The notes below the pieces were generated by a model. The model had not been told where the DNA came from. It saw nothing but the letters and a program-made list of their open reading frames with translations, and ran no database searches. DNA of 60,344 nucleotides from positions 1-60,344 of IMG/VR virus record IMGVR_UViG_3300032219_000250. One strand, written 5' to 3'. Below, one piece after another: positions 6,078 through 50,970 of the stretch. The first letter of the stretch is position 1. Each line of letters opens with the position of its first letter. Position numbers and translations under genes: made by a program. Origin of the DNA: a virus. Lineage: Duplodnaviria > Caudoviricetes.

Positions 6078-6496
6078 TGTCCTTTCAACAAACGCTTACC
6101 ACCAGCTTCAAGCAACAGATTTTGCTGGCACAGCAAGACCTCTCTACGGACACGCTCAAGCTGGCGTTGTACACGGGTCTTGCTACGCTTGGCCCTAGCA
6201 CTACCGTGTACGACACTTCGTATGAAGTTGTTGGTACGGGCTACACAGCAGGTGGAAACATCCTCACAGGCGTGACGATAAGTACGTCTGCCAACGGTGT
6301 CGTGTACGTGGACTTCGCCAATTCCGTTTGGAATCCTGCGGCGTTCACGTGCCGTGGCGCTTTGATTTACAACTTCAGCAAAGGCAACAAGTCCATTGCT
6401 GTGTTGGATTTTGGGGCAGATAAAACTTGTCAAACCTCGTTCACAGTGCAAATGCCTGAGAATAATTCCACATCTGCGCTTTTGCGCTTTAATTAA
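6077..6496 (+). CDS. tail/neck structural protein
   Basis: SFKQQIL...LKLALYT...EVVGTGYTAGG...RGALIYN...VLDFGADK. Confidence 0.6.
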   Translation: MSFQQTLTTSFKQQILLAQQDLSTDTLKLALYTGLATLGPSTTVYDTSYEVVGTGYTAGGNILTGVTISTSANGVVYVDFANSVWNPAAFTCRGALIYNFSKGNKSIAVLDFGADKTCQTSFTVQMPENNSTSALLRFN

Positions 6497-25900: not shown

Positions 25901-28900
25901 GGTCGGCAGAACCAAACTGACTGCCACTGCACAAGCCGCTAAGTTGTATTTCAGCAAGGTGCCTCGCGTTGTGGATGCCATGCGCAATATCGCGTTCGAT
26001 GTGGTCTACGACACGCCTCGCTTCCGTCGCGGTAGCGAATCAAAAGCTGAGTCTGACTTCTTCCAAGGCATGAACGGTGAGAACGCCAAGCTCGCGTTTG
26101 ACTGGATACGTGCAAACATGTCGAGCGAAACCAATGCACAACTGGACAAACTTGTTCAGGAGTATGAGCGTCAGCAACGCATGACAACAGATGAGGCATT
26201 GGTGCAGTTGTTCTCGGACGCCTTTGCTGGCAAAGAGACCGTTGATGCAACCATCCAGTCTTACATAGATGCCCAAAAGGGTGAGACCAAGAAGATCAAA
26301 CTTGACGCTGTACAGAGCGCGGGTTTACCCTTGCACCCCTCAGTCGTTGCGGCTTTGAAGGGTAATGATGTGCAAGGTGCTCTGCGCTTGTTGGCGGCAA
26401 GCACTGAAGGCCCAATCTCTCAAACTGCCTCGGCGCTGATCAAAGCCAAGATCACATCAAAAGTTGTTGTTGAGAAGAATCTCACCGATGAGAATGGTGT
26501 ACGTGTCCCCGGCTACTACGATCCGAAGACTGACACCGTATATCTTGATGCTGAGTTAGGCTTGAACCCACACGTGCTGTTCCATGAACTTGGACACGCC
26601 GCAACATCTCACGTGATTGAGAACAAGGCACACCCCTTGACAAAACAACTTACTCAGTTGTTTGATGACGTGAAGGGTTCGCTGGACACTGCATACGGCT
26701 CAACAAGTTTGGATGAGTTCGTTGCCGAGGCGTGGGCCAACGAAGAGTTCAAGGGCAAGCTCAACTCCATCAACCCCAAGGGCGAGAAGATCACTGCATG
26801 GCAACGCTTCACCAACGCGATTGTCAACTACTTCCGCAAACTCATGGGCAAAGAGACCAAGGGTATTGAGAGCGCATACGATGTGGCAGACCGCCTCATT
26901 CAAGCCATCTTGTCCCCTGCACCCGAGGGTCGTAATGGCCCGATGCTCTACGCCGCCGTGGTCAATCCCAAGAATCCAATGTTGGCAAACTGGCTCGACC
27001 AAGGTGTTGAAGTCGCCACGAAGTTAGGTGTACCTCCACAACTTGCCGCCAAGACGCACGAGTTCCTCAAGAACTCCACAAGCGGTGTGGCTAACAACAT
27101 GTTGTTGTCCACGTTGCCACTGCATGCACTGTCGGATGTTGCCAAGAAGTACCTGCCTAGAGCGGTCGATGTTGACCGTCTTGTTAACGAGAAGTCCGGT
27201 GACGAGTACGCACGTACTCAACGCATCGAACCTGTGATCAACGAAGCCGAACGCTGGGCAAAGGCCAACCCACAGTTGCTCGACAAGTTCAACCGTATCG
27301 TCTATGACAGCACGACCAACGAGGTTGATCCGTCTGTTCCACGTGAAACGTACGAGAAGATCAAGGACAAGGAAACCCGCGAGGCCAAGCTCAAAGAGTG
27401 GGATGCCATGCAAGCGGATTGGAAGAACCTTGGCCCCGGAGGTCGTCAGGTGTACACACGTATGCGTGATACCTACGCCGCCATGTACGAAGATGTCAAG
27501 AAGGCCATCGGTGCCAAGATTGACTCTGCCACAAGTGCTGACACTGCCAAGAAAATCAAGAACGAAATCTATGCCAAGCTCGCAGAGCGTGGACATGTAT
27601 CGCCTTACTTCCCACTGACACGTAATGGTGACTACTGGTTGTCGTACACCGCCAAAGACGCACGGGGTCAGCCTGACTTTTATGTCATGGCGTTTGAGAC
27701 CGAGTACGAGCGCAGTCGAGTAGAGGCGCAGTTGAAAGCGGGTAAGACTGAAAAAGAACTCAAAGAGATGGCGATCCGCGCGTACAAGAACATCGGCGAG
27801 ATCAGCTACAAGGATGTACCACCTACTTCATTTGTGAATGGCGTGCTCAAGACGCTCGAAGTCAACAAGGTTGATGAGAAGGCGCGAGAAGAAGTAATGC
27901 GCCTGTTCTTGAACACACTGCCTGAAACATCTTTTGCGCAAGGGTTCCAACGCCGCCAGAACCGCCTTGGATTTAACCGTGATGCCATCCGTGCGTTCCG
28001 CGAGAAGTCCATGAGCATGGCTCGGCAGTTAAACAACATGACCTACGCTTCCAAATTAACTGATCTGCGTGATCAGTTGAGAGCCGATGTCAGGGCACTG
28101 GGTCAGACCGAAGACAACCGTGTTGCCGCCGAGTACTACGATGAATTGAAGCAACGCATCAACTTTGCGATCAGCCCAACGACCAACACAGCAACTCGCA
28201 TACTGTCGTCAATTGGCTTTAACTACTTGCTCGGCTTCAACATCTCCTCTGCCGCTGTCAACTTAACGCAGGTTCCCCTGATCGTGTTGCCATATCTCGG
28301 CGGTAAGTACACCTACGGTGATGCAAGCAAAGCAATCCAAGAGGCGTACAAGATGTATGCCCGAAGTGGTTTTGACCGCAATGTGACCATCATGTCCAAG
28401 GAAGGCGATAAAGATGTTCAGGTGAATGAACGTGCAATGCCAGCACTGGACAACTACGACTTTGCCGCACTTGATGCCAAGAAAGATGCGCGTACAAAAC
28501 GACTGGAGACCCTTGCCGAGGAAGCCTCACGTGCGGGTCAACTCAACCGCTCCATGTTCTATGACGTGTTGGAAGTTGATGGAAGCAAGAACTTCTTCTC
28601 TGTGTTCAACGGTGCATCCAGTTTTGCTTTCCATCATGGTGAACGCATGAACCGTCAGGTGACGATGATTGCCGCCTACAACCTTGAACTCGATTCAATA
28701 GACGGCAAACTTAACAAACGTGTTGACCCCGACAGCACGGAAGACACGCGCACGTTCAAGGACTTGAGTCAGAAAGAACGTGAGCAGTACGCCGCTCGGC
28801 AAGCCATCTACACAACCGAGATGACCAACGGCGGTACCACTGCCGCATCTGCCCCTCGTATTGCTCAAGGGGCTTGGGGTAAGGTGCTCTTCATGTTCAA

Positions 28901-29819
28901 ACGGTATGGTGTGCAGATGTACTACATGCTGTTCAAGATGACACGTGAGATGTTGCAAAAACAAGACCCCGTGGTCAGAAAGCAAGCCATGAAGCAACTT
29001 GCTGGTGTGTATGGCACTGCGGCAATCTTCTCTGGCTTACAAGGCTTACCGCTGTTTGGCGTTGCCGCCATGATCTACAACATGTTCAGGGATGACGATG
29101 AAGAAGACTTCGGTACCGCCACACGTGCCTACATGGGGGAACTTGCGTACAAAGGTGTGGTCAATCAACTGACCAACCTTGACATCGCATCGCGTGTTGG
29201 TTTGGGTGATCTAATCTTCCGCGAAAACAAAATGTCGTCAGGCTCAGTATCGCTTGCCGAGACGCTCGGTGAAACGCTCGGTGGCCCTCTGTATGGCATC
29301 GGAACCAAAATTTATCGTGGTGTGAACATGATGTTTGACGGTGAAGTCATGCGCGGGTTTGAGACCGCACTGCCAACCGCCACAGGTAACCTGTTGAGGT
29401 CGTACCGATTCGCTACCGAAGGTGCTAATACTCTGCGTGGCGACCCCATCGTTGGAGACATTGCGGCTGGAAACGCATTTGCACAACTCTTTGGTTTTGC
29501 ACCCGCTAATTACACCAAGCAGTTGGAGATCAACGCAACCATCAAAGGCATCGACAAGTACGTCAACGAGACTGCAACAAAATTGCGCCGCCAGTACAAC
29601 ATCGCTGACAGGACGTACGACTTTGAGAAACAGATGGACGTGCGTGAGAAGTTGGAGAAGCTCTACGCCAAACACCCCTCCCTTGGAGACTTGGATACTT
29701 CTCTTATCAAGTCAAAGGCGGCGTTTGAAAAGCAGACACCGTTGATGTACAACGGCATCACCATCAGCCCGAAACTGCGTGACGAACTACTTGAGTTGGC
29801 GGCAGATTTGGAAGACTAA
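22926..29819 (+). CDS. 2297-aa large polyvalent ejection protein with zincin metallopeptidase and PLxRFG-like domain
   Basis: VLFHELGHAAT (HExxH) plus downstream DEFVAEA; YFPLTRNGDYW; Lys/Glu/Pro linker; last gene of the structural operon. Confidence 0.75.
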   Translation: MRVVNIPNYGPVSFPDGTPDEEINARVARFMAAQQQKQEYTPDYRDLGIGQLVSGGFKRAASSLGSTVTDLLPALGGAMVGNDKYAREQLAEAAEKRRQAELANPTGYKSYKDVRGLGDAAGFVAETVGELGPDILGLLTGAGVGASVGKRIATKGVEETAGKLAVESLAKKGLTGEALDAAAAQVGKDAVEAAAKKGAARGTMTGLYGSSVGLNAPDTFQNIFEKTGNLEPGIALAFGAAQGVLDTYLPSKILSQLGSAGRDRLAGEIVKRSSLIPDSAKVAVAKELAKTTAGEATTEALQEALGILAEKTAGAKGDFLSSENVDRLLNSAIKGAIGGGTFGAPGAIVEGRRSAQLQREEADRRTEAEGQPPAPPTGGTPKVDYNVPAYMRRAGTQTDMFQGELDKARGFGMDEVAKATPDSKGATYAESVEAAKLKLKSKGTSSLTADELNLLRSEPDTEIGTYDEGRQMSLFEDTGEKRAKRQAEVEESFKSAEPDLLGDVLPPTEQEASLEPVPDPRVEALIEKVRRREALAPDEIALLQGRVEEAPISADPRQGALQFAAPAPEGRGFREEPFNTQMPDQLQEKVGRDSAFRQAEQEAAAQKQAETVAAENQRQLQLAEPPAPPAPPAPAPREQVQESFPGMGVRYGDKVRANQEAARAEATTNKTPDAVSGVVSQDMLTGFGVLPAAPLRKRLVGKDLSNPTDRAQVQRELSAYAKNEAVPPESREKVNQFLQSPLFMEQTAMFGPKGGATAAATRKETPRVELKPIEPVPTITGEGVSVPSRPAEPEAPAGTPAPRNGGVDVSTSGTGQTGVRAEPKQGTLKTVKFEPVALVTPKVETKAKAKAKAETPSADEQADLQAELDAEMGQKTEVKATKPEVKVEKSKAEKPEVKAEKPAEKPKAEKPVEKPVEKVEPKKEAKAEKPAEKSVGKSEPKNEQKDVPEDIGEVKVSQARAGSLFERIKAEGYGIEKNDVDAKDVNRATLLKVGRTKLTATAQAAKLYFSKVPRVVDAMRNIAFDVVYDTPRFRRGSESKAESDFFQGMNGENAKLAFDWIRANMSSETNAQLDKLVQEYERQQRMTTDEALVQLFSDAFAGKETVDATIQSYIDAQKGETKKIKLDAVQSAGLPLHPSVVAALKGNDVQGALRLLAASTEGPISQTASALIKAKITSKVVVEKNLTDENGVRVPGYYDPKTDTVYLDAELGLNPHVLFHELGHAATSHVIENKAHPLTKQLTQLFDDVKGSLDTAYGSTSLDEFVAEAWANEEFKGKLNSINPKGEKITAWQRFTNAIVNYFRKLMGKETKGIESAYDVADRLIQAILSPAPEGRNGPMLYAAVVNPKNPMLANWLDQGVEVATKLGVPPQLAAKTHEFLKNSTSGVANNMLLSTLPLHALSDVAKKYLPRAVDVDRLVNEKSGDEYARTQRIEPVINEAERWAKANPQLLDKFNRIVYDSTTNEVDPSVPRETYEKIKDKETREAKLKEWDAMQADWKNLGPGGRQVYTRMRDTYAAMYEDVKKAIGAKIDSATSADTAKKIKNEIYAKLAERGHVSPYFPLTRNGDYWLSYTAKDARGQPDFYVMAFETEYERSRVEAQLKAGKTEKELKEMAIRAYKNIGEISYKDVPPTSFVNGVLKTLEVNKVDEKAREEVMRLFLNTLPETSFAQGFQRRQNRLGFNRDAIRAFREKSMSMARQLNNMTYASKLTDLRDQLRADVRALGQTEDNRVAAEYYDELKQRINFAISPTTNTATRILSSIGFNYLLGFNISSAAVNLTQVPLIVLPYLGGKYTYGDASKAIQEAYKMYARSGFDRNVTIMSKEGDKDVQVNERAMPALDNYDFAALDAKKDARTKRLETLAEEASRAGQLNRSMFYDVLEVDGSKNFFSVFNGASSFAFHHGERMNRQVTMIAAYNLELDSIDGKLNKRVDPDSTEDTRTFKDLSQKEREQYAARQAIYTTEMTNGGTTAASAPRIAQGAWGKVLFMFKRYGVQMYYMLFKMTREMLQKQDPVVRKQAMKQLAGVYGTAAIFSGLQGLPLFGVAAMIYNMFRDDDEEDFGTATRAYMGELAYKGVVNQLTNLDIASRVGLGDLIFRENKMSSGSVSLAETLGETLGGPLYGIGTKIYRGVNMMFDGEVMRGFETALPTATGNLLRSYRFATEGANTLRGDPIVGDIAAGNAFAQLFGFAPANYTKQLEINATIKGIDKYVNETATKLRRQYNIADRTYDFEKQMDVREKLEKLYAKHPSLGDLDTSLIKSKAAFEKQTPLMYNGITISPKLRDELLELAADLED

Positions 29820-33998: not shown

Positions 33999-34280
33999 TT
34001 AAACATCTTTATCAGGGTTAAAGTCCAACTCCAATTGCACGGGTGCTTTGGGGTCAGGGGTATCTGCCACAGGTGCGACAGGTTCGGGGGTAGCGTCAGC
34101 GGATACACGGCGCAAGGCCGCATCCACGTCAGCAATTTTGAAGCGGTACGTATTGCCCAACTTCAAAAAATCGGTGGTTGTTAATTTGCCAGTACGAATC
34201 CACGTGCGAATAGTGGACACGGATACCGAGTAGTACTTGGCAACGTCTTCTATCGAGACATAGGTGTTGTCGCTCATCAT
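33999..34280 (-). CDS. excisionase/MerR-like helix-turn-helix DNA-binding protein
   Basis: VSIEDVAKYYSVSVSTIRTWIRTGKL....KLG..YRF. Confidence 0.8.
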   Translation of the reverse strand: MMSDNTYVSIEDVAKYYSVSVSTIRTWIRTGKLTTTDFLKLGNTYRFKIADVDAALRRVSADATPEPVAPVADTPDPKAPVQLELDFNPDKDV

Positions 34281-42404: not shown

Positions 42405-42707
42405 TTAAATTCCTAGGACACGTCCTAGTGTTTCCTCAAATACGCCCACGTTCTCATCATTGACAACAAGGGCGATCCCGCCAGACCTTTCGATCTGACG
42501 TAGATTCTTTTCCTGAAGGGGTGTGGTCGTGTTCTTCCCTGCCTTGCACTCGATCCCAATGAATCGTCCGTGCAAGCAGACAAGAAAGTCGGGTGCACCT
42601 GAATTGCCATAGCCCCCTGTAACAGGCATGACGTAGTACGCACCCAACTTATCCAACACCTTACGTACCTGTGCTTTCACACGGCGTTCGGGTGTCATTG
42701 CCATCAT
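42405..42707 (-). CDS. VRR-NUC domain nuclease / Holliday junction resolvase-like
   Basis: TPE..VK, GAPDFL, FIGIECKAG, T.LQ...L..I...GG. Confidence 0.85.
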   Translation of the reverse strand: MMAMTPERRVKAQVRKVLDKLGAYYVMPVTGGYGNSGAPDFLVCLHGRFIGIECKAGKNTTTPLQEKNLRQIERSGGIALVVNDENVGVFEETLGRVLGI

Positions 42708-43077
42708 CTTCTCCTTCGTCAGGGTAGACCCAAAAGGTTCCCCTAGATATACGTCTACCTATCCCCTTGATTTCGTCCATCGGTTTCTCAGGATCGAAAA
42801 TCATAAGCACTGCAATCTTGCGTTGCATCCACTCAGGTAGTACGTCCACAGAATCATAGCTCCGATCTACATCTTCTGCAAGCCCCCATGTAGTAATGTT
42901 TACCCTACCGTTTGGCTCGACTGCCACACGATAAGTTTGCGTTGCCATAGCCACAAATATCTGTGCGGTTACGGTCTTGTTGTCAAGTTTGCTCACGCTA
43001 TGCCGCATCAAGTCCGACATAGCCGTGAACGTCTTGCGCTCGTGCTTGGACATATAGTCCTCGGCGTTGCTGTCCAT
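42661..43077 (-). CDS. hypothetical protein, paralogous to the C-terminus of 43079..44038
   Basis: LPEWMQRKIAVL...GIGRRISRGTFWV. Confidence 0.65.
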   Translation of the reverse strand: MDSNAEDYMSKHERKTFTAMSDLMRHSVSKLDNKTVTAQIFVAMATQTYRVAVEPNGRVNITTWGLAEDVDRSYDSVDVLPEWMQRKIAVLMIFDPEKPMDEIKGIGRRISRGTFWVYPDEGEDDGNDTRTPCESTGT

Positions 43078-43078
43078 G

Positions 43079-44038
43079 TTATCTCTCAACCCAAAACGAC
43101 TTCTCAGATACACGGCGACCCACCTGCTCCATGTACTGATCGTTGGTTGCAATGGTCAGTACTGCCAACTTACCCTTGATGTCATCAGGCAGGTCATTGA
43201 TGTTCATAGACGTAATAGGACATGTATCCACGCTACTAGATGAACGGTTGTTGATGTCGGGCACATCCACCACATCAACCCACTGCTCACCACCTACCAT
43301 ACGTACATACACATAGTATGCGTTGAACGGCTTGCGCTTCATCTCCTCCCAATCCTTGTCGGCTTGGGTGATCTGCTCGGCGGCTTGTATGAACTGAGGC
43401 GTTGAGAACGTGACGTTGGCAGTCAGCAAGTTGCGCATCTCGGCAAGCAACACGTTGCGGTCTTGTAGTGGCTCCAAGATTCTATTGAGCTTGCTTTGTG
43501 AGTTACTACGCACCAGTGCAATGTCAGACTTGAAGTCATGGAAGTTGATGTACGCCATCTCTTTCGGTGAGTACGGTGTCAGCTTGGACAAGGCAACCTT
43601 CATCGCCTTCTTGAAGTCCTTGGCGAACGACATGAAGTACTGCTCACGATGATCGTTAAACTTCTCGTTGTTGATCTTGCGACTGTGAATCATGTACATA
43701 GGCTCGTCTGATTCGTTGATGCCGTACAGTTTGCCGTAGCCCACACGCCCTACGATGTAGTCCGATCCCTCGATGTACACGTGCACGTCTGAGTACACGG
43801 TCTTGCGCACCTCATCGGTGAACGTGATAGAGACCTTCAAGTTTGACAGACCACCGCGCCCTGCATGGAACCGATACCCACTGTATGACCTACGCAATTG
43901 GAGACACAAGTCAAGTACTTCTTTACGCACAGGGATGCCGTCAATCTTGTGAGGCCAATCACTAACTTGTTCTTGTGTGTGCAAGTCGCGCTCGTTTGCG
44001 GGTTGTAGGTCAGCTACTAATACGTGTTTGAAAGCCAT
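43079..44038 (-). CDS. hypothetical protein of the AAA/VWA operon
   Basis: SD AAGGAGA; SRKINNEKF; C-terminal LPDDIKGKLAVL...VGRRVSEKSFWV. Confidence 0.7.
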   Translation of the reverse strand: MAFKHVLVADLQPANERDLHTQEQVSDWPHKIDGIPVRKEVLDLCLQLRRSYSGYRFHAGRGGLSNLKVSITFTDEVRKTVYSDVHVYIEGSDYIVGRVGYGKLYGINESDEPMYMIHSRKINNEKFNDHREQYFMSFAKDFKKAMKVALSKLTPYSPKEMAYINFHDFKSDIALVRSNSQSKLNRILEPLQDRNVLLAEMRNLLTANVTFSTPQFIQAAEQITQADKDWEEMKRKPFNAYYVYVRMVGGEQWVDVVDVPDINNRSSSSVDTCPITSMNINDLPDDIKGKLAVLTIATNDQYMEQVGRRVSEKSFWVER

Positions 44039-44050
44039 TTTGATTTCTCC

Positions 44051-45331
44051 TTACATTGATGTTGATTCGATATGAACTGTCTTGCCCACGTCAGATGTCG
44101 CAGACTTGTTGTCGAGGATGCACCACAGGGTAGGCACATGCCATGTACCCCATGACCCACCAAGATAGCCATCGGTCAAGATGATCGCGGCTTGTGGCTT
44201 GATCTGCTTCTCACGCATATATGTTGTCACGCACTCCACCATCGTGCCCCCACCTCCTGCGGGTTTGGTTGATGTAGCGATACTGTCCAGTTGATCTTGG
44301 GTGTAGTACTCGTCACGACATACTTCTGTGTCCCAATACAAGAGGCGCACGCCGGAGGGTCGCACGGCTTTCGCAATGGCAGAGATTTCCCCTAGGAACT
44401 GTCCTAGCTCACGTCCACCAATCGAACCCGATGCGTCAATGGCAATCACCAACTCGCCCACGGTCTCACTGATACCGCTTGGCAAATAGATGTTCATACC
44501 AATGAACCTACGGTTAGGTCTGCGCCATGTTGAGTAGTCGTTGCCCTGACATGTAGCGGTTGCAAACTCACGCAACACCTCACGCCAGTTGACCTTGGCT
44601 TGCAAGACTTCATCGAGCATGCGGTTGCCGCCCGATCCCAATTTACCTGCCAACACGTTACCCTGACGTATGGCTTCATCGACAGCGCGTTCCACTTCCT
44701 TGCGCTCTTCCTCAGTCATCTCTTGGGCACCTTCCCAATCGTGCTGATCCATCGTCTCGCCGTTGCCACCACCATCACCGTCTTCGTCTTCACCCTCACC
44801 GTTGCCTTGACCCTGACCTTGCCCCTGTCCCTTACCTTGACCTTGGCCCTGCCCTTGTCCTTGCTCACGCAATAACTTGTATATCTCCACGCAGTCCATG
44901 CCACGGTAGGCGGTATCAATCAACCCAACCTTGGGCATCTTGATGAACCCGACACGTTGAGTCGTTGCGTCATAGTCCACCAACTTTAAGTTGATAGAGT
45001 AGTCGCATGCCATGTTTGCCACACGTGCACTCTCCTCGTACATCCACAGGTACGTTGTGAGATGTTTGTAGATAACGTGATACGCCTCGTGCAGGATGAG
45101 GAACCGTAACTCCGCATCATTGAGGGTGCCCACGAATGTGCGGCTATACCATGAGTCAAGTCCGTTGGTCATCGCAGTGCGGCAACCCCTGAACCCATCT
45201 TCCACGATCTTGTGTTCACCGAGCATGAGTACACCCACGACTGGCGCATACTCTGTCTCCCCGATGATGTCTGCAAACGCCTTGGTTAGACGTTGCTCCT
45301 CTGTCAGTTGTTTGTTACCAAGCATTAACAT
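44051..45331 (-). CDS. DUF2201-like metallopeptidase fused to a VWA domain
   Basis: TAMTNG, LILHEAYH (HExxH), ANMACDYSIN, (QG)n linker, IDASGS MIDAS motif, GGGGT, ILTDG. Confidence 0.88.
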   Translation of the reverse strand: MLMLGNKQLTEEQRLTKAFADIIGETEYAPVVGVLMLGEHKIVEDGFRGCRTAMTNGLDSWYSRTFVGTLNDAELRFLILHEAYHVIYKHLTTYLWMYEESARVANMACDYSINLKLVDYDATTQRVGFIKMPKVGLIDTAYRGMDCVEIYKLLREQGQGQGQGQGKGQGQGQGQGNGEGEDEDGDGGGNGETMDQHDWEGAQEMTEEERKEVERAVDEAIRQGNVLAGKLGSGGNRMLDEVLQAKVNWREVLREFATATCQGNDYSTWRRPNRRFIGMNIYLPSGISETVGELVIAIDASGSIGGRELGQFLGEISAIAKAVRPSGVRLLYWDTEVCRDEYYTQDQLDSIATSTKPAGGGGTMVECVTTYMREKQIKPQAAIILTDGYLGGSWGTWHVPTLWCILDNKSATSDVGKTVHIESTSM

Positions 45332-45358
45332 GTTTCATTCTCCTAGTCTGTGTCCTAG

Positions 45359-46462
45359 TTACTTCTTCTCTGCGGCAAACACGTAGTTGTTTGCCATGCA
45401 CCACTGTGTGAACAAGCCGTTAGTTACCACCTCGTTCTGACGTGAGTACTTCTCACGGCGCACTTGCATGACGAACATGTTCTGTGCGTCCTTCTCCAAG
45501 CGACCCATGTACTTCATCCATGAATCCATCCATGACTTCTCGATGGTCTGTAACGTGCGGTGCACCACCATACACGTTGCGCTCGGCGAGTCAGGAACCT
45601 TGGCGTTCATTGGGTCTTTCTTGATCTGTTCAAGAGATGGCAGTTGGTCAGCAACACGAACATACGCAAACAAGTTTGAGGCAGACTCCGCACCAATGGT
45701 GCCGATGAGGGCAGACATCAATACCTTGTCGGATAACTTGTCACGTATCTTCAACCAGTTGGATGCTTTCTCCAAGGAACGTGGTGTCACGAATGACGTA
45801 CGGCTCGGGTCGGCAGGGTGATAGATGTGCAAGTTCTCTTTGGGATCACGGATGTCAGTGAACGATGCGAACAGTTGAGGCGTGTCTGCTACCCATGCAA
45901 TCATGGTGTGGTCGATGCCGTTGTTGATCGCGTAGTCTTCGATCCATTCAACATTAGTAGGTTTACGTGTGTTGACAATCGTCAAGCGGTTGCGGGCATG
46001 TGCAGGGAGCAAGTCACCCACGCCTTCTGATCCAAGGTTGGTCGTTGCAAACACGATACTATCTTTGTGCAAGGTGTAGCTACCGATCTTGCGCTCAAGC
46101 ATCAGACGCAGTAGTGCGTTCTTCACCGCAGGGTTTGCCTTGCCGTACTCATCAATCATCAAGATGATGGGCTTGCCCAAGTGCGCACCTAGCTCTTCGT
46201 TCGTGACGTAACGTACAAACGAGTCTGTGAGTGAGTCGGTCAAGTTGACCACATTAGGTATGGTGATGTCACCAAGGTCTTTTGTGGTGCAGTCAAAGTA
46301 GCAGGGCGTGTGAGTCGGCAAGTCCTGTGCCAATACCTTGAGCATGGTCGATTTACCTGTGCCCATGTGACCTTGGACGAGGACGGTTGTCTCTCCCGAA
46401 TAGCGCACGAGGGCGGTAACTTCGGTGAGGTTCAGTGCGTAGAGTTCAGTTGCGTTAGACAT
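45359..46462 (-). CDS. MoxR-like AAA+ ATPase
   Basis: Walker A GHMGTGKS, Walker B LMIDE, ATTN, RNR, TPRS. Confidence 0.88.
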   Translation of the reverse strand: MSNATELYALNLTEVTALVRYSGETTVLVQGHMGTGKSTMLKVLAQDLPTHTPCYFDCTTKDLGDITIPNVVNLTDSLTDSFVRYVTNEELGAHLGKPIILMIDEYGKANPAVKNALLRLMLERKIGSYTLHKDSIVFATTNLGSEGVGDLLPAHARNRLTIVNTRKPTNVEWIEDYAINNGIDHTMIAWVADTPQLFASFTDIRDPKENLHIYHPADPSRTSFVTPRSLEKASNWLKIRDKLSDKVLMSALIGTIGAESASNLFAYVRVADQLPSLEQIKKDPMNAKVPDSPSATCMVVHRTLQTIEKSWMDSWMKYMGRLEKDAQNMFVMQVRREKYSRQNEVVTNGLFTQWCMANNYVFAAEKK

Positions 46463-46577
46463 GATTTGCTTTCTTCAGTTAAGGGATAACCCGGGATTTA
46501 AGTTTGTTACACACACTAGGAGATGTCCTAGTGTGTTGTTGTTCGTTGCGCTGGCTGCTCGCAGCTTGTACACAATC

Positions 46578-47483
46578 TCACCATTTCATGTTATTGAGAA
46601 TGGCATCGACCTTGGACTTCGTTTCCGCACGGAACGTGTCGTCGTCACGCAATGCGTCAGGTGATACACCGAGCATCGCATCCTCAAGGCGTACACGCAT
46701 GTTCTCCATACGTTGATCGCCTGTGATGTTGAACTTGGACAGTAGCCCAAGCATGTCACGTACGTTGTCCACGAGGGTGTCGCGGAATATCTTCTTGTCG
46801 TCCTTGCCCGAGTAGTCGAGCTTGGCAGACATGTTTGACAGTGCCTTGTATGTACGCTCCCACACGTCACCCATCGCAGACTGATATTGGTTGGCGTAGT
46901 GCGTTGCATATTGCTTGCGCAATTCCTCCTGTGCTTCGTGTCCGATGTTGAGTCGGAAGTCACCCACTTCGGGTATCGGTGTCTGTGCATGACGGAAGCG
47001 GAACTTAGACGCAACAATCTCGACGGACGGATAGTCATCGCTTGAAAACAAGTTACCGAGTCTTGCCTGTGCTTGGGCTTGCGCCCATCCGTATTCCTGT
47101 ACGAACTCATTGACCAAGGCAAAGTACTTGTTCTCCGCTTCGGTCAGTAGTCCGTAGTATTCGGGGAACATGGAAGTCGGCAGTAGGCGAACGCCTAGGT
47201 CTGACCAAGGCATCGTCAGGTGATAGTGGATGTTGGTACGTGTGTGGGCGATGTGCTTCTGAACGGCATCAAGTGTCGGTGAGGCAATCAGCTTCTTGTG
47301 GAACGCACCCGCATCATCTGACGCACCATTGGCAGTAGTCGTTTCCTTGGTCGCCTTGCGGTCGAGCTTTCGTGCAGTCCAGTTACCGATAGACAACTCA
47401 GCGAACATGGCAGACGATGAGATTGAGGGAGCCGTGACTTGGGGGGTCTCGGCGGCGAGGTGGTTTAGCAGTTGGTTTTCCAT
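46578..47483 (-). CDS. DUF3150-like helical protein
   Basis: LSIGNWTARKLD, TMPWSD.G.RLLP, LG.LF...DYP, KIFRDTL. Confidence 0.6.
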   Translation of the reverse strand: MENQLLNHLAAETPQVTAPSISSSAMFAELSIGNWTARKLDRKATKETTTANGASDDAGAFHKKLIASPTLDAVQKHIAHTRTNIHYHLTMPWSDLGVRLLPTSMFPEYYGLLTEAENKYFALVNEFVQEYGWAQAQAQARLGNLFSSDDYPSVEIVASKFRFRHAQTPIPEVGDFRLNIGHEAQEELRKQYATHYANQYQSAMGDVWERTYKALSNMSAKLDYSGKDDKKIFRDTLVDNVRDMLGLLSKFNITGDQRMENMRVRLEDAMLGVSPDALRDDDTFRAETKSKVDAILNNMKW

Positions 47484-47632
47484 TTCATTTCTCCAGAAGG
47501 GTTTTGATTAACATACAAAAAACATACTAGGACGTGTCCTAGAACGTGGTCGGTAGCTAATGCCGTGTAGTGAACAGGTGAGTAAACTCAACTGAATAAC
47601 ACTACTTACAAACATTAACCAACCGAATACAT

Positions 47633-47661
47633 AGTATATCACAGGTTGACACTCAACGCAA
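47633..47661 (-). promoter_or_regulatory. sigma70-like early promoter
   Basis: TTGCGT-17 nt-TATACT with TG extension. Confidence 0.7.
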
Positions 47662-47847
47662 TCTTTGCAGATTCGTGTACAGGCACTCGTTGACATGGGT
47701 CTTACCCTTGGAGTCAACGTAGGATTCACCGCATCCCGATGCCCACTAAACAAGCAAGTAAGCAAAGAACACGACAAACACAGCACCAAGGGCGGCTTGG
47801 GCTAACCACACTAGGACACGTCCTAGGATTTCAAGAAGTAGGCGCAT
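47653..47847 (-). pseudogene. small membrane protein gene interrupted by an in-frame TAG at 47746-47748
   Basis: SD GGAGG; MRLLLEILGRVLVWLAQAALGAVFVVFFAYLLV*WASGCGESYVDSKGKTHVNECLYTNLQRLR*. Confidence 0.6.
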
Positions 47848-47848
47848 T

Positions 47849-48076
47849 TCAGTTATCCTCCTTCGTGCACTCGGTGAGGGTCATGTCGGCGTTGACACGC
47901 AACACGGCATAGCCGTAGTAGTTCTCGGTGGCTATGAACATGCCGGATTCAAGCGGCGCGTTGGGCTTGGGGTTACCCTGCGCATCAGTCACGCACCAAC
48001 CCATACCAAGGAACCCGCCACGGCACCCGCTGAGAATACGGTCGTGAAGTTGTTCTGCTATCTTTTCGGTTTTCAT
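47849..48076 (-). CDS. hypothetical early protein
   Basis: SD AGGAG; ATGA coupling. Confidence 0.6.
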   Translation of the reverse strand: MKTEKIAEQLHDRILSGCRGGFLGMGWCVTDAQGNPKPNAPLESGMFIATENYYGYAVLRVNADMTLTECTKEDN

Positions 48077-48354
48077 TTGGCATCTCCTACCATGTTGTCG
48101 TATTGCTCCCACGCCTCACACACAGGGCATCCGTCTTCGTGCTCGGGGCAACGCTCGCCCCAATAGAACAACACCGCCTCATGCACAGGGTTGTTGTCAG
48201 GTGCAGTGTTTGTGTTGGCATCCACATCACAGGGGGTGTGTCCCTCACTTGGCGGGAAAATTAAACTGAGCATGGCAGTGCGCACCTCGGGTGCAAGGGG
48301 TTCACGCACCTCATCGAAAATGTCGATGGTGCGGTTGTCTTCGGGTTGTTTCAT
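48073..48354 (-). CDS. hypothetical early protein with Cys cluster
   Basis: YWGERCPEHEDGCPVCEAW. Confidence 0.65.
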   Translation of the reverse strand: MKQPEDNRTIDIFDEVREPLAPEVRTAMLSLIFPPSEGHTPCDVDANTNTAPDNNPVHEAVLFYWGERCPEHEDGCPVCEAWEQYDNMVGDAK

Positions 48355-48650
48355 GTTGTCCTCTTTGGGTTAAGTTGTTTCAGGGTATCGGTGTCGAAAC
48401 ACGCGATGTAGTTGGACTTGTTCATCGGCACGATGGTGTGCTTGACCTGACGTGCGGCTTTCTCTCCGCAGTCAAGGCAAGTGGTGTAGCCGAGATGCGA
48501 ACGCATGGGCGGGACGCGAACGGCATAACAACACGTGCAAATAAGTTGGTGTGCGTGATGTTCACGCACAGGGGCACCCCCAATCTTGGGGGGTTTTGGC
48601 TTGCGCACGAGCATCGTGCGGTCGCCTCGTTGGGTAACGACAAGTGGCAT
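48351..48650 (-). CDS. DksA/TraR-like C4 zinc-finger early protein
   Basis: SD GGAGG; CTCC...VPPMR..LGYTTCLDCGE. Confidence 0.6.
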   Translation of the reverse strand: MPLVVTQRGDRTMLVRKPKPPKIGGAPVREHHAHQLICTCCYAVRVPPMRSHLGYTTCLDCGEKAARQVKHTIVPMNKSNYIACFDTDTLKQLNPKRTT

Positions 48651-48785
48651 ATAACCTCCATAAAGAGTCGAACAACAAAGAAGAAAAGCCCTAGGACGTG
48701 TCCTAGGAAGAACAGTGGTAGGGGCGAACAATCGAACTAAGCGAACAAAGAACAAACCGAACAAACGAACTACCACTGAACATAT

Positions 48786-48814
48786 AGTATACCACAAGTG
48801 GTAGGGGATGTCAA
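48786..48814 (-). promoter_or_regulatory. strong sigma70 early promoter
   Basis: TTGACA-17 nt-TATACT with TG extension. Confidence 0.85.
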
Positions 48815-48894
48815 TCTTTGCAGAATGGTGGTAAGAGGTGTTAGGGCGTGTAATGTACTAAATGTTCTTGAATGTTCGGTCGGTGGGAATGACG

Positions 48895-48907
48895 TAAGTC
48901 ATTGATT
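48895..48907 (-). promoter_or_regulatory. IHF consensus site
   Basis: AATCAA-TGAC-TTA matches WATCAANNNNTTR. Confidence 0.5.
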
Positions 48908-49351
48908 TATAAGGTAAGTTCGTATAGTTCGTAATGTTCGGTGCTAAAAGGGGTTTGGCGAAACGGAGGTGCACTAGGTTGTGTCCTAGGATAAATCCGC
49001 GAGGCTTGACCCTAGACGACCGTTTTGGCCGAAATCGCTCTAAAAACACCGAACATTAGAACACTATCAAAACACTACTTTTCTTATTAACTAATATCAA
49101 AATCTATCTATCAAAATATCTATTCCCATGCCTAAATGTGCGTAAACGTGCCAACTAATATACTGTACCTAATGTTCTTAACAGTTCCGAACATTACAGA
49201 ACAATATGCTAGGGAATACCCTAGTTTGATCAAACAGAAAACATGTTTGCCACGCTACGTTAGAACACTCGCGCCAGCGAACTTTAGAACAACCCGAACA
49301 AACGAACACTACGAACAAAGAACAAAACCTTTTCCCGAACAACCTGATGGG

Positions 49352-49516
49352 GGCGCAACGCTACTCTAGACACTGGTTTCGGGGACTAGGACACGTCCTA
49401 GTATGTTTACAAGTGGACTGGCTCATCAGGCTCATCGCTGGCTCATGTGGCATGCCACAGGCGCAACGCTACTTCAGGCACTGGTTTCGAAGACTAGGAT
49501 ACAACCTAGTGTGTTT
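49352..49516. repeat. 57-bp imperfect direct repeat (49352..49408 and 49460..49516)
   Basis: 48/57 identical by manual alignment; each copy contains a CTAGG-N6-CCTAG palindrome. Confidence 0.85.
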
Positions 49517-49546
49517 GTATGTAAATGGGGGAATTACTGTAAATAT

Positions 49547-49637
49547 GTACAGACGTAAAAAAGCCCCCTTGCGGGGGCATGCGGGAAAGAATCAGGGAAA
49601 GTACAGACGAAAAAAAGCCCCCTTGCGGGGGCTTTTT
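49547..49637 (-). terminator. tandem duplicated terminators GCCCCC-GCAA-GGGGGC plus T-run
   Basis: Hairpins at 49563..49578 and 49617..49632, each followed on the minus strand by T6-7 and CGTCTGTAC; third hairpin copy at 49860..49875. Confidence 0.8.
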
Positions 49638-49650
49638 GGAGGGGGAGAGA

Positions 49651-49842
49651 TTACAGAGTGCTGAAAGCACTTGAATCATTATCATAAAACCAGTCTGTAT
49701 AAGAGTAGATGCTACCCTCACAAGACAAGTATTGTCCGTGCACTGGTTCGTCTAATGTTGACTCTTCTAATCCGGCCTCTTCGAGGGTTTCGAATTCAAC
49801 AACATCTTCCCATTGCATTTCGTCAACTAAATCTAATTGCAT
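49651..49842 (-). CDS. 63-aa highly acidic early protein (possible DNA mimic)
   Basis: SD AAAGGA; 17 Asp/Glu and no Lys/Arg. Confidence 0.6.
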   Translation of the reverse strand: MQLDLVDEMQWEDVVEFETLEEAGLEESTLDEPVHGQYLSCEGSIYSYTDWFYDNDSSAFSTL

Positions 49843-49883
49843 GATGTTATCCTTTGAAAGCCCCCTTGCGGGGGCTTTTGGGT

Positions 49884-50471
49884 TTAGACGGAGGGGGTGA
49901 TTTTCTTGATTTGATTCAAGAGCTTCACGCATTCCGTAACATCAAATTCAGGCTTTTCAATACCCTGATACTTGCTGATCACTTCATCCAGTGACTTTTG
50001 CAAACGCTGATGGAGAGTCTTTTTAGCTTTTGCGGCTTTTTGCTCATCCGTCATTGTCTCTTGCTCTTCGCGCTCCCTGAGCTTGCTTTCGAGCTTCCCA
50101 ATCAGCGAACCGATTTGGGTTTGCCAGTAGGCTTTCACCCCCTTGTCAACTTGCGACAAGGATTTGGTTTCAGCCGCAAGGATTTTTTGCACGTCCTTGT
50201 CTTGCTTGCTGATCACAATGCCGCGAACCCGATTCCGATTCTCCACTGTATCAGTACGCTTTGCATCCAAGTGAACCGGACGCATGCCCTTTGACCAGAG
50301 AAAATCAGTCACTTGCACCCATTTGTTTCTAGCTGTTATCTCAGCACCAAAAGCCTCACCGATTTTCTTTTCGACTTGATCGTCAAAAGTAAACGGGGGC
50401 AAAGCCGCAAGAGTTGCAACAGAACCAGTAACACCCGCCACAACAGTGGCAATCACGCTTTGAGCTTTCAT
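49884..50471 (-). CDS. first early gene, helical hypothetical protein
   Basis: SD GGAAGG before MKAQSVI; directly downstream of a promoter. Confidence 0.7.
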   Translation of the reverse strand: MKAQSVIATVVAGVTGSVATLAALPPFTFDDQVEKKIGEAFGAEITARNKWVQVTDFLWSKGMRPVHLDAKRTDTVENRNRVRGIVISKQDKDVQKILAAETKSLSQVDKGVKAYWQTQIGSLIGKLESKLREREEQETMTDEQKAAKAKKTLHQRLQKSLDEVISKYQGIEKPEFDVTECVKLLNQIKKITPSV

Positions 50472-50532
50472 TTGAAAGTCCTTCCAAAATGTCAGAGTAG
50501 GGATAAAACACCCTTTGAACCCGACAACCCCA

Positions 50533-50561
50533 ACTGTATAGATGTTATTAGGTGTCGTCAA
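50533..50561 (-). promoter_or_regulatory. sigma70-like early promoter
   Basis: TTGACG-17 nt-TACAGT. Confidence 0.7.
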
Positions 50562-50970
50562 TAGATATCAGAAACTATTTAAAAGTATTTTCTATTGACA
50601 AAAGATATTTCACTAGGACGCATCCTAGATTTTTTGGCGGGCATGGTCAGACCTTGACCCTACCGGAGGGGGGACACCCCAAATTGGTTTGGAGTCCCGT
50701 GGCTGCTATGGCTGCTATTCCACACACTCAGAGACCACTTTTTTTAAAATGGGTACTCCAGATGCTCATTGTGTTCGATTGTTCGCCGGGACGTACCTGT
50801 AATGAACACACAAAAAACGTGTTTGCCACGTGATTCCTAGACCCCCACCCCCGGGGCAGACATGAAACACACCCCCTATCAAAAATAGTACCCCCCTGTA
50901 AAAATTTTATTTTTTGTGGTATGGTGCAGACTTCTATGAGGCATTTCGCCACATAAGCGCACAATTTGAT

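Follow-up and report, generated by a model that had tools for sequence, protein, structure and literature searches.

A lineage-specific palindrome array in the early region of an uncultured freshwater phage: possible operators for a dimeric DNA-binding factor

The early region of an uncultured freshwater phage carries an array of palindromes of the form CTAGG-N6-CCTAG. It represents a single allele of an element that is family-wide but specific to each lineage: at corresponding positions, related phages have palindromes of other sequence, a pattern pointing to a regulatory recognition code in rapid change. We propose, with a probability of roughly 0.4, that the palindromes are stoperator-like operators at which a dimeric factor, binding DNA sequence-specifically, would control early and middle gene expression. 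The window, the whole 60,344-nt stretch of DNA analysed here, is an entire phage record of about 60 kb, of lytic type and without any sign of lysogeny.

A palindrome array confined to the early region

The original prediction, made from the letters of the window, described twelve sites between positions 42413 and 50628 and restricted them to the early region. A scan of the whole record bore this out: eleven exact matches to CTAGGNNNNNNCCTAG are present (Table 1, those within the tandem modules included), none lies outside 42413-50628, and allowing one mismatch adds the site at 45343 (CTAGTCTGTGTCCTAG) as the twelfth. One hundred dinucleotide-preserving shuffles of the window gave a mean of 0.01 exact sites (maximum 1). 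Four other one-mismatch matches occur, at 6183, 24426, 47183 and 49000 (chance expectation 0.62). The exact 16-mer CTAGGACACGTCCTAG is found, in either orientation, at the five positions first reported for it: 42413, 47527, 47811, 48691 and 49386. The underlying unit is a 7-2-7 palindrome, CTAGGAC-NN-GTCCTAG, whose outer CTAGG is unchanged in all 22 arms of the eleven exact sites while arm positions 6-7 and the centre vary. The CTAG tetramer is rare overall, at 74 copies where base composition predicts 235 and a Markov estimate 96, and about a third of all CTAGs in the window belong to these sites.

The motif had also been said to encode LGRVL twice. This holds at 42413, a site that codes for the C-terminus of a 100-aa endonuclease-like protein and precedes the start (42401) of a 150-aa HTH gene by 11 nt. 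At 48691 it applies only to a TTG-started extension of ORF 48351-48797, where the sequence is probably 5′ leader (of the zinc-ribbon gene starting at about 48644) rather than coding.

Table 1. Palindromes and neighbouring elements of the early region (coordinates of the window)
Feature	Position	Strand	Context
Palindrome CTAGGACACGTCCTAG	42413..42428	.	Covers final codons of endonuclease-like gene 42405-42707
Palindrome CTAGGAACTGTCCTAG	44392..44407	.	Within DUF2201/VWA gene (44051-45331); sole clearly intragenic copy
One-mismatch copy CTAGTCTGTGTCCTAG	45343..45358	.	Between AAA gene stop (45359) and DUF2201 gene start (45331)
Palindrome CTAGGAGATGTCCTAG	46516..46531	.	Between 301-aa gene stop (46578) and AAA gene start (46462)
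Palindrome CTAGGACGTGTCCTAG	47527..47542	.	43 nt upstream of start (47483) of conserved 301-aa early gene
Palindrome	47811..47826	.	Borders variable two-ORF insert 47849-48354
Palindrome	48691..48706	.	Leader: 3′ of strongest sigma-70-like promoter, 5′ of conserved zinc-ribbon gene (ATG ~48644)
Sigma-70-like promoter TTGACA-17-TATACT, TG extension	48786..48814	-	11 of 12 consensus matches; consensus match only
Palindrome CTAGGTTGTGTCCTAG	48974..48989	.	Non-coding stretch 48.8-49.65 kb
Palindrome CTAGGGAATACCCTAG	49209..49224	.	Non-coding stretch; inner pair altered on both arms
Tandem module 1	49352..49408	+	Family-conserved element (GCGCAACGCTAC...ACTGGTTTC), then palindrome 49386-49401
Tandem module 2	49460..49516	+	Same conserved element as module 1, then palindrome 49494-49509 (CTAGGATACAACCTAG)
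Palindrome CTAGGACGCATCCTAG	50613..50628	.	Divergent control region between first leftward gene (49884-50474) and rightward small-terminase-like gene (50914)

Different palindromes in the same places among related phages

Equivalent arrays are present in relatives. Among 18 related loci that reach 4 kb or further upstream of the terminase gene (TerL), 16 carry their own repeated palindrome of 14-18 bp (a dominant palindrome being one with at least three exact copies), and at least 16 types are found in all. In the same 18-locus set no copy of a dominant palindrome occurs downstream of the TerL start. Likewise, in six genomes (four near-complete and two partial) the palindrome with 6-nt arms that occurs most often is the one particular to that lineage, and all its copies precede the terminase gene. 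Each genome has 5-13 sites, with arms that are invariant and centres (0-4 nt) that are variable within a genome. The arrays are confined to the leftward early region, at conserved places, and in all 26 array-bearing sources a site precedes the large terminase gene by about 0.8-1.6 kb, mostly at -0.8 to -1.2 kb. The same palindrome type recurs in separate branches. Total length varies from 14 to 18 bp between lineages, i.e. half-site spacing differs, which is unusual for one protein family and counts against an operator role.

Replacement between relatives is concerted. The close relative G026 is collinear with the window (65-88% nucleotide identity in aligned blocks, most proteins 75-98% identical) and carries GTTATCA-N4-TGATAAC in the places orthologous to those of CTAGGAC-NN-GTCCTAG; there are no hybrid arrays, each of the two being without any copy of the other's type. 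In another pair, L055 and L063, the flanks are about 80% identical and the inner 9 nt differ at the four orthologous places compared. Such concerted change requires a trans-acting reader. The HTH gene downstream of site 42413 is preceded by an orthologous site of other sequence in four relatives (G026, L234, L236 and L237), and sites at core genes (the 301-aa gene, AAA, DUF2201 and the HTH gene) keep their position across lineages with differing palindromes. Site number and location shift between close relatives: in place of the intragenic copy at 44392, G026 has a site in the gap separating the DUF2201/VWA gene from the next gene (G26r 2168).

These shifts are also what would be expected of recombination or cassette-boundary repeats, like T4-type PeSLs or REP sequences, that would chiefly aid, or parasitise, exchange among small early genes, their uniformity being maintained through copying between sites. 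Small, highly variable early ORFs are indeed flanked by sites; the insert 47849-48354 beside site 47811 is without a protein match in G026 and is shorter in near-identical strains; the stretch between sites 47811 and 48691 is about 278 bp shorter in the phage G002; contigs from other runs join ~47833-47849 to 48089-48091 across part of the insert; and PeSLs are conserved terminator/promoter motifs mediating such shuffling (PMC4122927). We nevertheless consider this explanation unlikely: the fixed position of the core-gene sites despite their differing sequence argues against it, ordinary homologous exchange needs more than 16 bp, Pfam and PHROGs scans revealed no transposase, RAYT-like or recombinase gene, and the sites have no attached sigma-70 promoter motif of the kind carried by PeSLs. 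One clear case of an indel bounded by a palindrome was noted, at 47811.

Position relative to genes and the nature of the recognised element

Only 29 of 135 family sites fall within called ORFs, compared with 91.7 expected; the sites are mostly intergenic. On the early strand, 63 of 136 sites are followed within 70 nt by a ribosome-binding site, a start codon and an ORF, as opposed to 13 of 147 on the other strand; the sites lie upstream of early-gene starts at a median distance of 23 nt (mode 18-24). The gap from the stop of the upstream gene to the palindrome is broad, and the sense-strand flanks are rich in A and poor in G. An intrinsic terminator signature (a GC-rich hairpin followed by a U tract) is absent: the downstream T fraction on the early strand is 0.05-0.41, A is dominant, and a terminator consensus scan flags just a few copies in the window. 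No positional enrichment of -35 or -10 motifs was detected within 45 nt of 134 sites, nor upstream of within-operon sites.

The link with translation starts on the early strand fits a role at the RNA level at least as well as one at the DNA level, and an RNA-level element is the main rival to operators. The transcribed palindrome would fold into a small hairpin a few bases ahead of the ribosome-binding site, in a leader rich in A, and act in the processing, stability or translation of early-gene mRNA. Its reader would be an RNA-binding factor with sequence specificity, or else a complementary RNA. The strand bias, the broad gap to the upstream stop and the composition of the flanks all favour such a role, as do the folding of the window copies into hairpins and the fact that both arms always change together between lineages. 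The predicted hairpins are of -6.4 to -10.7 kcal/mol, with one, at 46516, reaching -17.6 kcal/mol, where the flanks are also palindromic (ACACA/TGTGT), but z-scores are modest for most copies. Degenerate copies (n = 24) lose pairing: in these, 25 mismatched pairs lack compensation, whereas 2 pairs are compensated and 5 are G:T, the G:T pairs showing no strand bias (3 versus 2). Together with invariant arms and variable centres, these uncompensated changes indicate selection on sequence, not pairing. In addition, several types have centres of just 0-2 nt, e.g. GTTAGGGAATTCCCTAAC and GTTATACGGTATAAC, and in one lineage the palindrome is only 8 bp long, GTTATAAC, and recurs with a 10-bp phase in runs of up to three, shapes that suit a protein on one face of the duplex better than a hairpin. 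The site in the divergent region is probably upstream of the leftward promoters, and identical stems at all copies would equally demand a sequence-specific reader, none of which was found. An RNA-level element is a possibility to which we give about one chance in four.

Candidate readers of the palindromes

The original prediction had suggested four ORFs as binders, and comparison with relatives disfavours each of them. In the HTH_17 protein at 33999 the recognition helix is conserved in eight lineages bearing six different palindromes, and the helix of 41949, GAP(L/M)PYVYVVRSKM, is identical in the GTTATCA-N4-TGATAAC phages. ORF 37852, which is sigma-70 region-4-like, has no counterpart in relatives, being missing from G026 and from other CTAGG phages, while the product of 49884 is merely 12-20% identical among phages with the same palindrome and has a signal-peptide-like N-terminus. 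Nor did the suggested search for an ORF that co-varies with the motif identify a protein or segment tracking palindrome type. No window protein is exclusive to CTAGG phages (blastp, E up to 0.05 and up to 5), and core proteins contain neither CTAGG-specific columns nor a clear palindrome-tracking 25-aa stretch; the largest excess, 0.16 in the AAA protein, involves a single CTAGG comparator. An ejected protein had been suggested as a fifth candidate; here the analysis covered a 2297-aa virion protein with an LPD39 domain, which resembles polyvalent-protein clusters and is without a clear CTAGG-specific stretch.

The sites could also be phage-specific promoters, either as duplex or as N4-like extruded hairpins, for an unrecognised phage RNA polymerase or sigma-like factor, with transcription beginning at the 3′ edge of the palindrome and giving short leaders. 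The geometry is suitable, many early and middle gene starts being preceded, at about 20 nt, by one conserved element, and a lineage-specific sequence is also a property of T7-group promoters. We regard this as improbable, however. Neither an RNA polymerase nor a conserved sigma factor was detected in the phage, and the 2297-aa virion protein shows LPD domains only and matches no polymerase among PHROGs, Pfam or PDB sequences; the sigma-70 region-4-like ORF is missing from relatives; consensus matches indicate that strong host-type promoters are already present in the early region; a palindrome is unnecessary for a promoter; and the sites are without consistent orientation, the asymmetric AC/GT centre being found both ways round on the early strand.

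A parS-like role in loading or condensation, or a signal for ejection or protection of the first-entering DNA, had likewise been put forward. The window does contain a cluster of 13-16-bp palindromic sites, as do ParB/parS and KorB/OB systems, with its 16-bp palindromes grouped within 8 kb, and the outer TGTTA...TAACA of many family types resembles parS and the RK2 KorA/KorB operators. The partner is missing, however: ParB_N (PF02195) has no match at E up to 1 in the six frames of the whole record, although 11 of 14 control genomes scored, and neither ParA (in Pfam and PHROGs scans) nor a KorA homologue was seen. A lytic-type genome has no need for partition, and a tie to gene starts is unexpected of loading sites. 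Such a role is very improbable.

A model for early gene control

Although no binder was found, the idea of binding sites for a dimeric protein survives as the best explanation of the invariant arms, the variable centres and the uncompensated degenerate copies. A symmetric, probably dimeric factor would read the palindromes as cis-acting operators on double-stranded DNA and govern the leftward early and middle genes. Of the sites, one occupies the control region where the first early gene diverges from the packaging and late genes, the conserved tandem modules of the non-coding stretch hold two, and the rest are found just upstream of the ribosome-binding sites of early and middle genes. Once present, the factor would fill all sites together. 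At the control region it would shut or gate transcription; here the palindrome nearest the terminase gene is adjoined by sigma-70-like hexamers in the divergent intergenic DNA, the location expected of an operator. Before individual genes, bound sites would stop elongating host RNA polymerase, like mycobacteriophage stoperators. This control would time the early-to-late switch. Since within-operon sites are without an upstream promoter signature, the putative roadblock is the only mode that would operate there. The factor might also silence superinfection by a phage of like type, which would favour the rapid turnover of specificity seen between relatives. It could come from the host, or from the phage itself as a protein so small or divergent that it escaped detection.

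Beyond the individual sites, it is conceivable, at odds of somewhat under one in three, that the family uses a switchable cis code in which each genome has one palindrome, set at the same 5-13 regulatory positions and replaced as a set, and turnover reflects an immunity-like diversification among lytic phages. As no phage protein tracks palindrome type, such a code would have a reader of an as yet unrecognised sort, whether a tiny or hypervariable protein of the phage, a host factor differing between closely related hosts, or an RNA-guided reader.

Comparison with known systems

The early hairpin promoters of N4 comprise three sites with a 5-7-bp stem and a 3-nt loop, which are read by a giant virion RNA polymerase. 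Like these, the elements described here are short inverted repeats limited to the early region; unlike them, they have variable centres of 0-4 nt, number 5-13 per genome and occur in a phage with no detected polymerase.

With T4-type PeSLs (PMC4122927) they share the character of conserved repeats that can form stem-loops amid small variable early genes; an association with indels, as in PeSLs, is clear here in one case, at 47811. PeSLs bear an early sigma-70 promoter, whereas the present sites are without this signal and also precede conserved core genes.

IncP RK2, likewise a replicon of about 60 kb, has short palindromes in repeated copies, its KorB (OB) and KorA (OA) operators, which serve global repression. 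The operator sequences given in PMC11790492, OA TGTTTAGCTAAACA and the OB core TTTAGCGGCTAAA, look like the tGTTAGxx...xxCTAACa of many lineages in this phage family. In contrast to RK2, the phage is without a ParB-family protein, and the CTAGGAC type of the window does not have the TTAG...CTAA pattern.

The stoperators of Cluster A mycobacteriophages (L5, Bxb1) differ from the present sites in being asymmetric and transcription-oriented rather than palindromic, in being distributed genome-wide in temperate phages rather than solely in the early region of one of lytic type, and in having a known repressor gene that co-varies with them, whereas no co-varying repressor was found here. According to PMC6550527, Cluster A genomes have 20-30 repressor sites, mostly off promoters, which block elongation, and their consensus differs between subclusters. 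The arrays described here are similar in their many copies, in their location in short intergenic gaps of transcribed regions, mostly off promoters, and in a consensus that differs among related phages (PMC6550527).

The palindromes form an array confined to the early region

The repeat unit is the 7-2-7 palindrome CTAGGAC-NN-GTCCTAG. Eleven matches to CTAGGNNNNNNCCTAG occur across the 60,344-base window, all inside 42413–50628 (shuffle mean 0.01). As originally noted, the exact 16-mer CTAGGACACGTCCTAG is present in either orientation at 42413, 47527, 47811, 48691 and 49386, and the twelfth site claimed, at 45343, is recovered when one mismatch is allowed; four more such matches in the window are likely to be due to chance. 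Density is not similar genome-wide and no exact copy lies outside the 42413–50628 interval, in a virus record that the window spans entirely and that is estimated to be 96% complete; the array marks the early region as had been proposed. The expected scarcity of CTAG also holds in the window (74 copies vs 96–235 expected). The outer CTAGG is kept in 22/22 arms of the exact sites while arm positions 6–7 and the centre vary.

Six window sites occupy short gaps, each 11–53 nt ahead of the start of an early or middle gene, and a single one lies inside the DUF2201 gene. A 57-nt tandem module precedes each of sites 49386 and 49494, and a strong leftward sigma-70-like promoter is located about 80 nt upstream of site 48691. 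Our preferred reading, to which we give a probability of about 0.4, is that the palindromes are operators for a symmetric DNA-binding factor. The divergent control region would be gated by this putative factor, which, when bound ahead of early and middle genes, would also act as a roadblock; together, gating and roadblock would time the shut-off of the leftward genes. Use of the sites as parS-like or ejection signals, also considered initially, appears very improbable. No ParB, integrase or RNA polymerase was found in the window.

Positions of palindrome sites and other features in the window and in one related locus
Feature	Position	Strand or direction	Remarks
2297-aa protein	22926–29819		LPD39 domain
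Leftward genes	~30.1–50.6 kb	leftward	DUF927-type primase-helicase, helicase, exonuclease, family A DNA polymerase, endonuclease-like 100-aa protein, DUF2201/VWA and AAA pair, small unknown ORFs
Palindrome site	42413		short gap; overlaps final codons of upstream endonuclease-like gene
Early operon	44051–47483	minus	conserved
Zinc-ribbon protein gene	48351–48644	minus	conserved
Palindrome site	48691		within promoter leader
(C/A)GAACA runs	48725–48775, 49278–49326		repeated every 8–9 nt
Sigma-70-like promoter	48814–48786	leftward
Palindrome sites	48974, 49209, 49386, 49494		non-coding stretch
28-nt repeat ..AAAAC(A/G)TGTTTGCCACG	49227–49254, 50803–50830		after the 49209 palindrome; upstream of small-terminase-like gene
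~30-nt element GCGCAACGCTACTC..(A)ACTGG(T/C)(A/T)TC	49352–49385, 49460–49493
Terminator-like hairpin GCCCCCTTGCGGGGGC	49563–49578, 49617–49632, 49860–49875		three copies
Palindrome site	50613		divergent region, first leftward gene to small-terminase-like gene
C-rich motif (ACCCACCCGTACCC, CCCTACC, similar)	50640–50680
Rightward genes	from 50.9 kb	rightward	small and large terminase, portal, capsid, tail, lysis, 2297-aa polyvalent protein
HNH homing-endonuclease-like ORF	3654–4136 of L055		inserted in variable early region

Related phages carry their own palindrome types

A terminase search gave more than 600 matches, of which 80 loci were kept. The relatives are metagenomic contigs throughout, part of them fragments, and gene calls are ORF picks. 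A palindrome was called dominant when it had 6-nt arms and at least three exact copies, and by this measure one is present in 26 of the 84 sources examined. Arrays were found in 8/21 sources with 2–4 kb of sequence upstream of the large terminase gene (TerL) and in 2/45 with less than 2 kb; 16 of the 18 loci with at least 4 kb carry a palindrome of their own, and the array is conserved as a feature among relatives.

The types include GTTAGGGATTCCCTAAC, GTTATACGGCGTATAAC, GTTATGAATGTTCATAAC, GTTATAGAATCTATAAC, GTTAGTG-N3-CACTAAC, GTTAGGC-N3-GCCTAAC, GTTAGTC-N4-GACTAAC, TCGGGCA-NN-TGCCCGA, CTGTAA-NN-TTACAG, CGTTCGA-N-TCGAACG, GTTATCA-N4-TGATAAC and also GTTATAAC, an 8-bp palindrome repeated at 10-bp (helical) phase. 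Every copy is upstream of TerL. In 22 of the 26 array-bearing sources, the copy closest to TerL is found at −0.8 to −1.2 kb; in the remaining four (L043, L088, L094 and L113) it is farther away, at −1.6 to −2.2 kb. In the window and five relatives (three 98–100% and two 57–60% complete), each record's own palindrome is its commonest record-wide and is confined upstream of TerL.

The exact 16-mer of the window occurs in 38 viral-contig stretches, many of these contigs having 2–5 copies. Whole-record scans revealed 8 sites in G002, a record near-identical to the window, 8 in G001, 4 in G003, 5 in G005 and 13 in each of the fragments G006 and G010. The sites of these CTAGG relatives are frequently the perfect palindrome CTAGGACGCGTCCTAG, and their core proteins are only 21–74% identical to those of the window. 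To explain the CTAGGAC type on the TerL tree, a minimum of two changes is required, on branches with good support. In five further viral contigs, from other phage families, exact matches are single and isolated and form no arrays.

Sites are replaced in concert

One relative, G026, is 60,852 bases long and 97% complete; it is collinear with the window, with aligned blocks 65–88% and most proteins 75–98% identical. It has ten GTTATCA-N4-TGATAAC sites, at least five of which align to window sites at orthologous places; directly upstream of both the HTH gene and the 301-aa gene, each genome has its own site. Some sites of either genome have no counterpart in the other, and neither contains a copy of the other's palindrome type. 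A second pair of loci, L055 and L063, has flanks that are about 80% identical and, at the four orthologous places compared, shows no difference other than the inner nine bases (GTTA-GGGATTCCC-TAAC vs GTTA-TACGGCGTA-TAAC). Such a set-wise change cannot be drift and requires either a trans-acting reader of the sites or an active copying process.

Sites are tied to gene starts

The same core genes are preceded by sites across lineages, namely those for the 301-aa, AAA, DUF2201, 319-aa and 150-aa HTH proteins, and 29 of 135 distinct sites fall inside called ORFs vs 91.7 expected. Repeats marking cassette boundaries are an unlikely explanation; the sites precede these same genes in lineage after lineage. 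On the early strand, 63/136 sites are followed within 70 nt by an ORF of at least 40 aa with its start and ribosome-binding site (median 23 nt), and on the other strand a ribosome-binding site, start and ORF lie within 70 nt at 13/147 sites. Phage-specific promoters, which might be placed in such a manner, are quite improbable here. Around 134 sites there is no positioned −35/−10 signal or T tract, and the early-strand sequence next to the sites is rich in A.

The main rival, which we consider doubtful, is an RNA hairpin acting beside the ribosome-binding site. This reading stays alive because the sites are tied to gene starts. As RNA, the window copies can fold into hairpins of −6.4 to −10.7 kcal/mol, with one of −17.6. 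The 24 degenerate family copies include 25 uncompensated mismatched pairs, 2 compensated and 5 G:T, without strand bias, and several palindrome types have almost no loop. Because of the uncompensated mismatches, the near-loopless types and the 8-bp palindrome in helical phase, we read the sequences as pointing to selection on the half-site in duplex DNA and not on pairing. A small chance is left to something other than the readings considered here.

Candidate readers of the sites

The HTH ORFs and the first early gene had been put forward as binders, and comparison with relatives disfavours all of them. Across 8 lineages that between them have 6 palindrome types, the HTH_17 protein (33999) keeps its recognition helix, and the helix of 41949 is invariant (98 database relatives) and identical in GTTATCA-type phages. 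Gene 37852 is absent from G026 and also from the CTAGG phages other than the window, as is the NrdR-like zinc-ribbon ORF 40787, a further candidate. No other syntenic early protein differs as much between the window and G026 (30% identity) as the first early protein (49884), which begins in the window with a signal-peptide-like segment; yet this protein is only 12–20% identical among phages sharing the CTAGG type.

The ORF expected to co-vary with the motif did not emerge: no window ORF of at least 30–35 aa is shared with CTAGG phages alone. The core proteins show no type-specific columns and no 25-aa stretch that clearly fits palindrome type, the largest excess being 0.16, in the AAA protein with one comparator. 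When the early control region of the window is compared with those of other CTAGG phages, the palindromes are the sole nucleotide similarity apart from coding homology.

Among the species genomes scanned for the same site, no host regulon was seen. The scan for CTAGGACRYGTCCTAG covered 185,579 such genomes and listed at least 80 loci, mostly single matches in unrelated taxa. The few double matches among the loci listed are on small MAG contigs, and in five such MAGs the motif occurs 1–3 times, more rarely than its reversed control (6–26). Receptor-binding proteins common to CTAGG lineages, taken as a proxy for a shared host, were not found.

Other features of the genome and its control region

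The closest cultured phages are pelagiphages and cyanophages, Pelagibacter phage HTVC027P among them, with 44–48% TerL identity, and the gene order of the best cultured relatives differs from that of the window. A nucleotide-level search of the phage collection with the window gave no match; the stretch or close relatives were found in freshwater, wastewater and aquatic metagenomes (10 studies). Rfam and tRNA scans of the window detected no RNA genes. Contigs of one RNA library cover parts of it, including the non-coding 48616–49639, without giving ends, strand or level and with DNA carry-over possible.

The early operon, present in 6/6 genomes compared, encodes a 301-aa unknown protein, a MoxR-like AAA ATPase and a DUF2201 protein, which is metallopeptidase-like plus VWA-like. 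Profile searches with the 301-aa, 356-aa and 319-aa core families against PDB sequences returned nothing useful. The strongest early promoter is followed first by the gene for the zinc-ribbon protein (CxxC...CxxC, with the ending PMNKSNY...LNPKRTT), which is conserved, has no match in Pfam and is 74–83% identical in relatives with other palindromes. The 2297-aa protein, whose C-terminal part has matches in families of very large proteins from phages, is probably of the polyvalent kind and injected; it is only 58% identical to its G026 counterpart, with variable segments. Atlas look-ups gave no hint of function for this protein or for the first early one.

The GCGCAACGCTACTC element also occurs in L055, L063, L085, L088, L094, L099, L110, L238 and other loci, independently of palindrome type, as 2–3 tandem copies spaced by about 100–150 bp within the non-coding early region. 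A palindrome usually, not always, follows the element, which could belong to an origin, a promoter or a small RNA; a sigma-54 reading of its ACTGGYWTC module was rejected, the GG-to-GC spacing being unfit and the −12 GC missing. The (C/A)GAACA runs flank the palindromes of the non-coding region and recur in relatives; they look iteron-like and possibly serve the DUF927 primase-helicase. A 63-aa acidic ORF lies between two GCCCCCTTGCGGGGGC copies and is missing from the contig of one run, since this joins 49639 to 49884. At least 12 relatives have the C-rich motif at the corresponding place. In many lineages it lies 25–45 nt to the right of whichever palindrome is closest to the terminase gene, and it could be a packaging or late-promoter element.

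Comparison with known systems

Operator systems with many sites and changing specificity are well documented in temperate phages and plasmids; we know of no description of such systems for abundant uncultured freshwater lytic phages. In the present family, no fewer than 16 alleles of the site, at fixed positions, form a natural series; with the collinear window/G026 pair, which has different alleles, it becomes directly testable how a regulon-wide recognition sequence can be exchanged and what reads it. With a host factor as the reader, palindrome type would mark host range from sequence alone; a phage factor would point to mutual exclusion among related lytic phages.

Likeness to LexA, NrdR, CRISPR-repeat, attC and dif sites was dropped as order or spacing is mismatched. 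In the literature on such repeats in phage early regions we found stoperators and PeSL motifs, and nothing on this phage family. The stoperators of Cluster A mycobacteriophages are the closest functional analogue, but their asymmetry, known co-varying repressor and temperate lifestyle are not seen here (PMC6550527). The operators of RK2 KorA/KorB resemble many family types in sequence although no ParB-family protein is encoded in the window (PMC11790492). PeSL motifs likewise lie between variable early genes but carry a promoter, whereas the sites of this family do not (PMC4122927). We file the array with multi-site operator arrays; it is unusual in combining the lack of a detectable cognate protein with strict palindromes at conserved positions and at least 16 alleles among close relatives.
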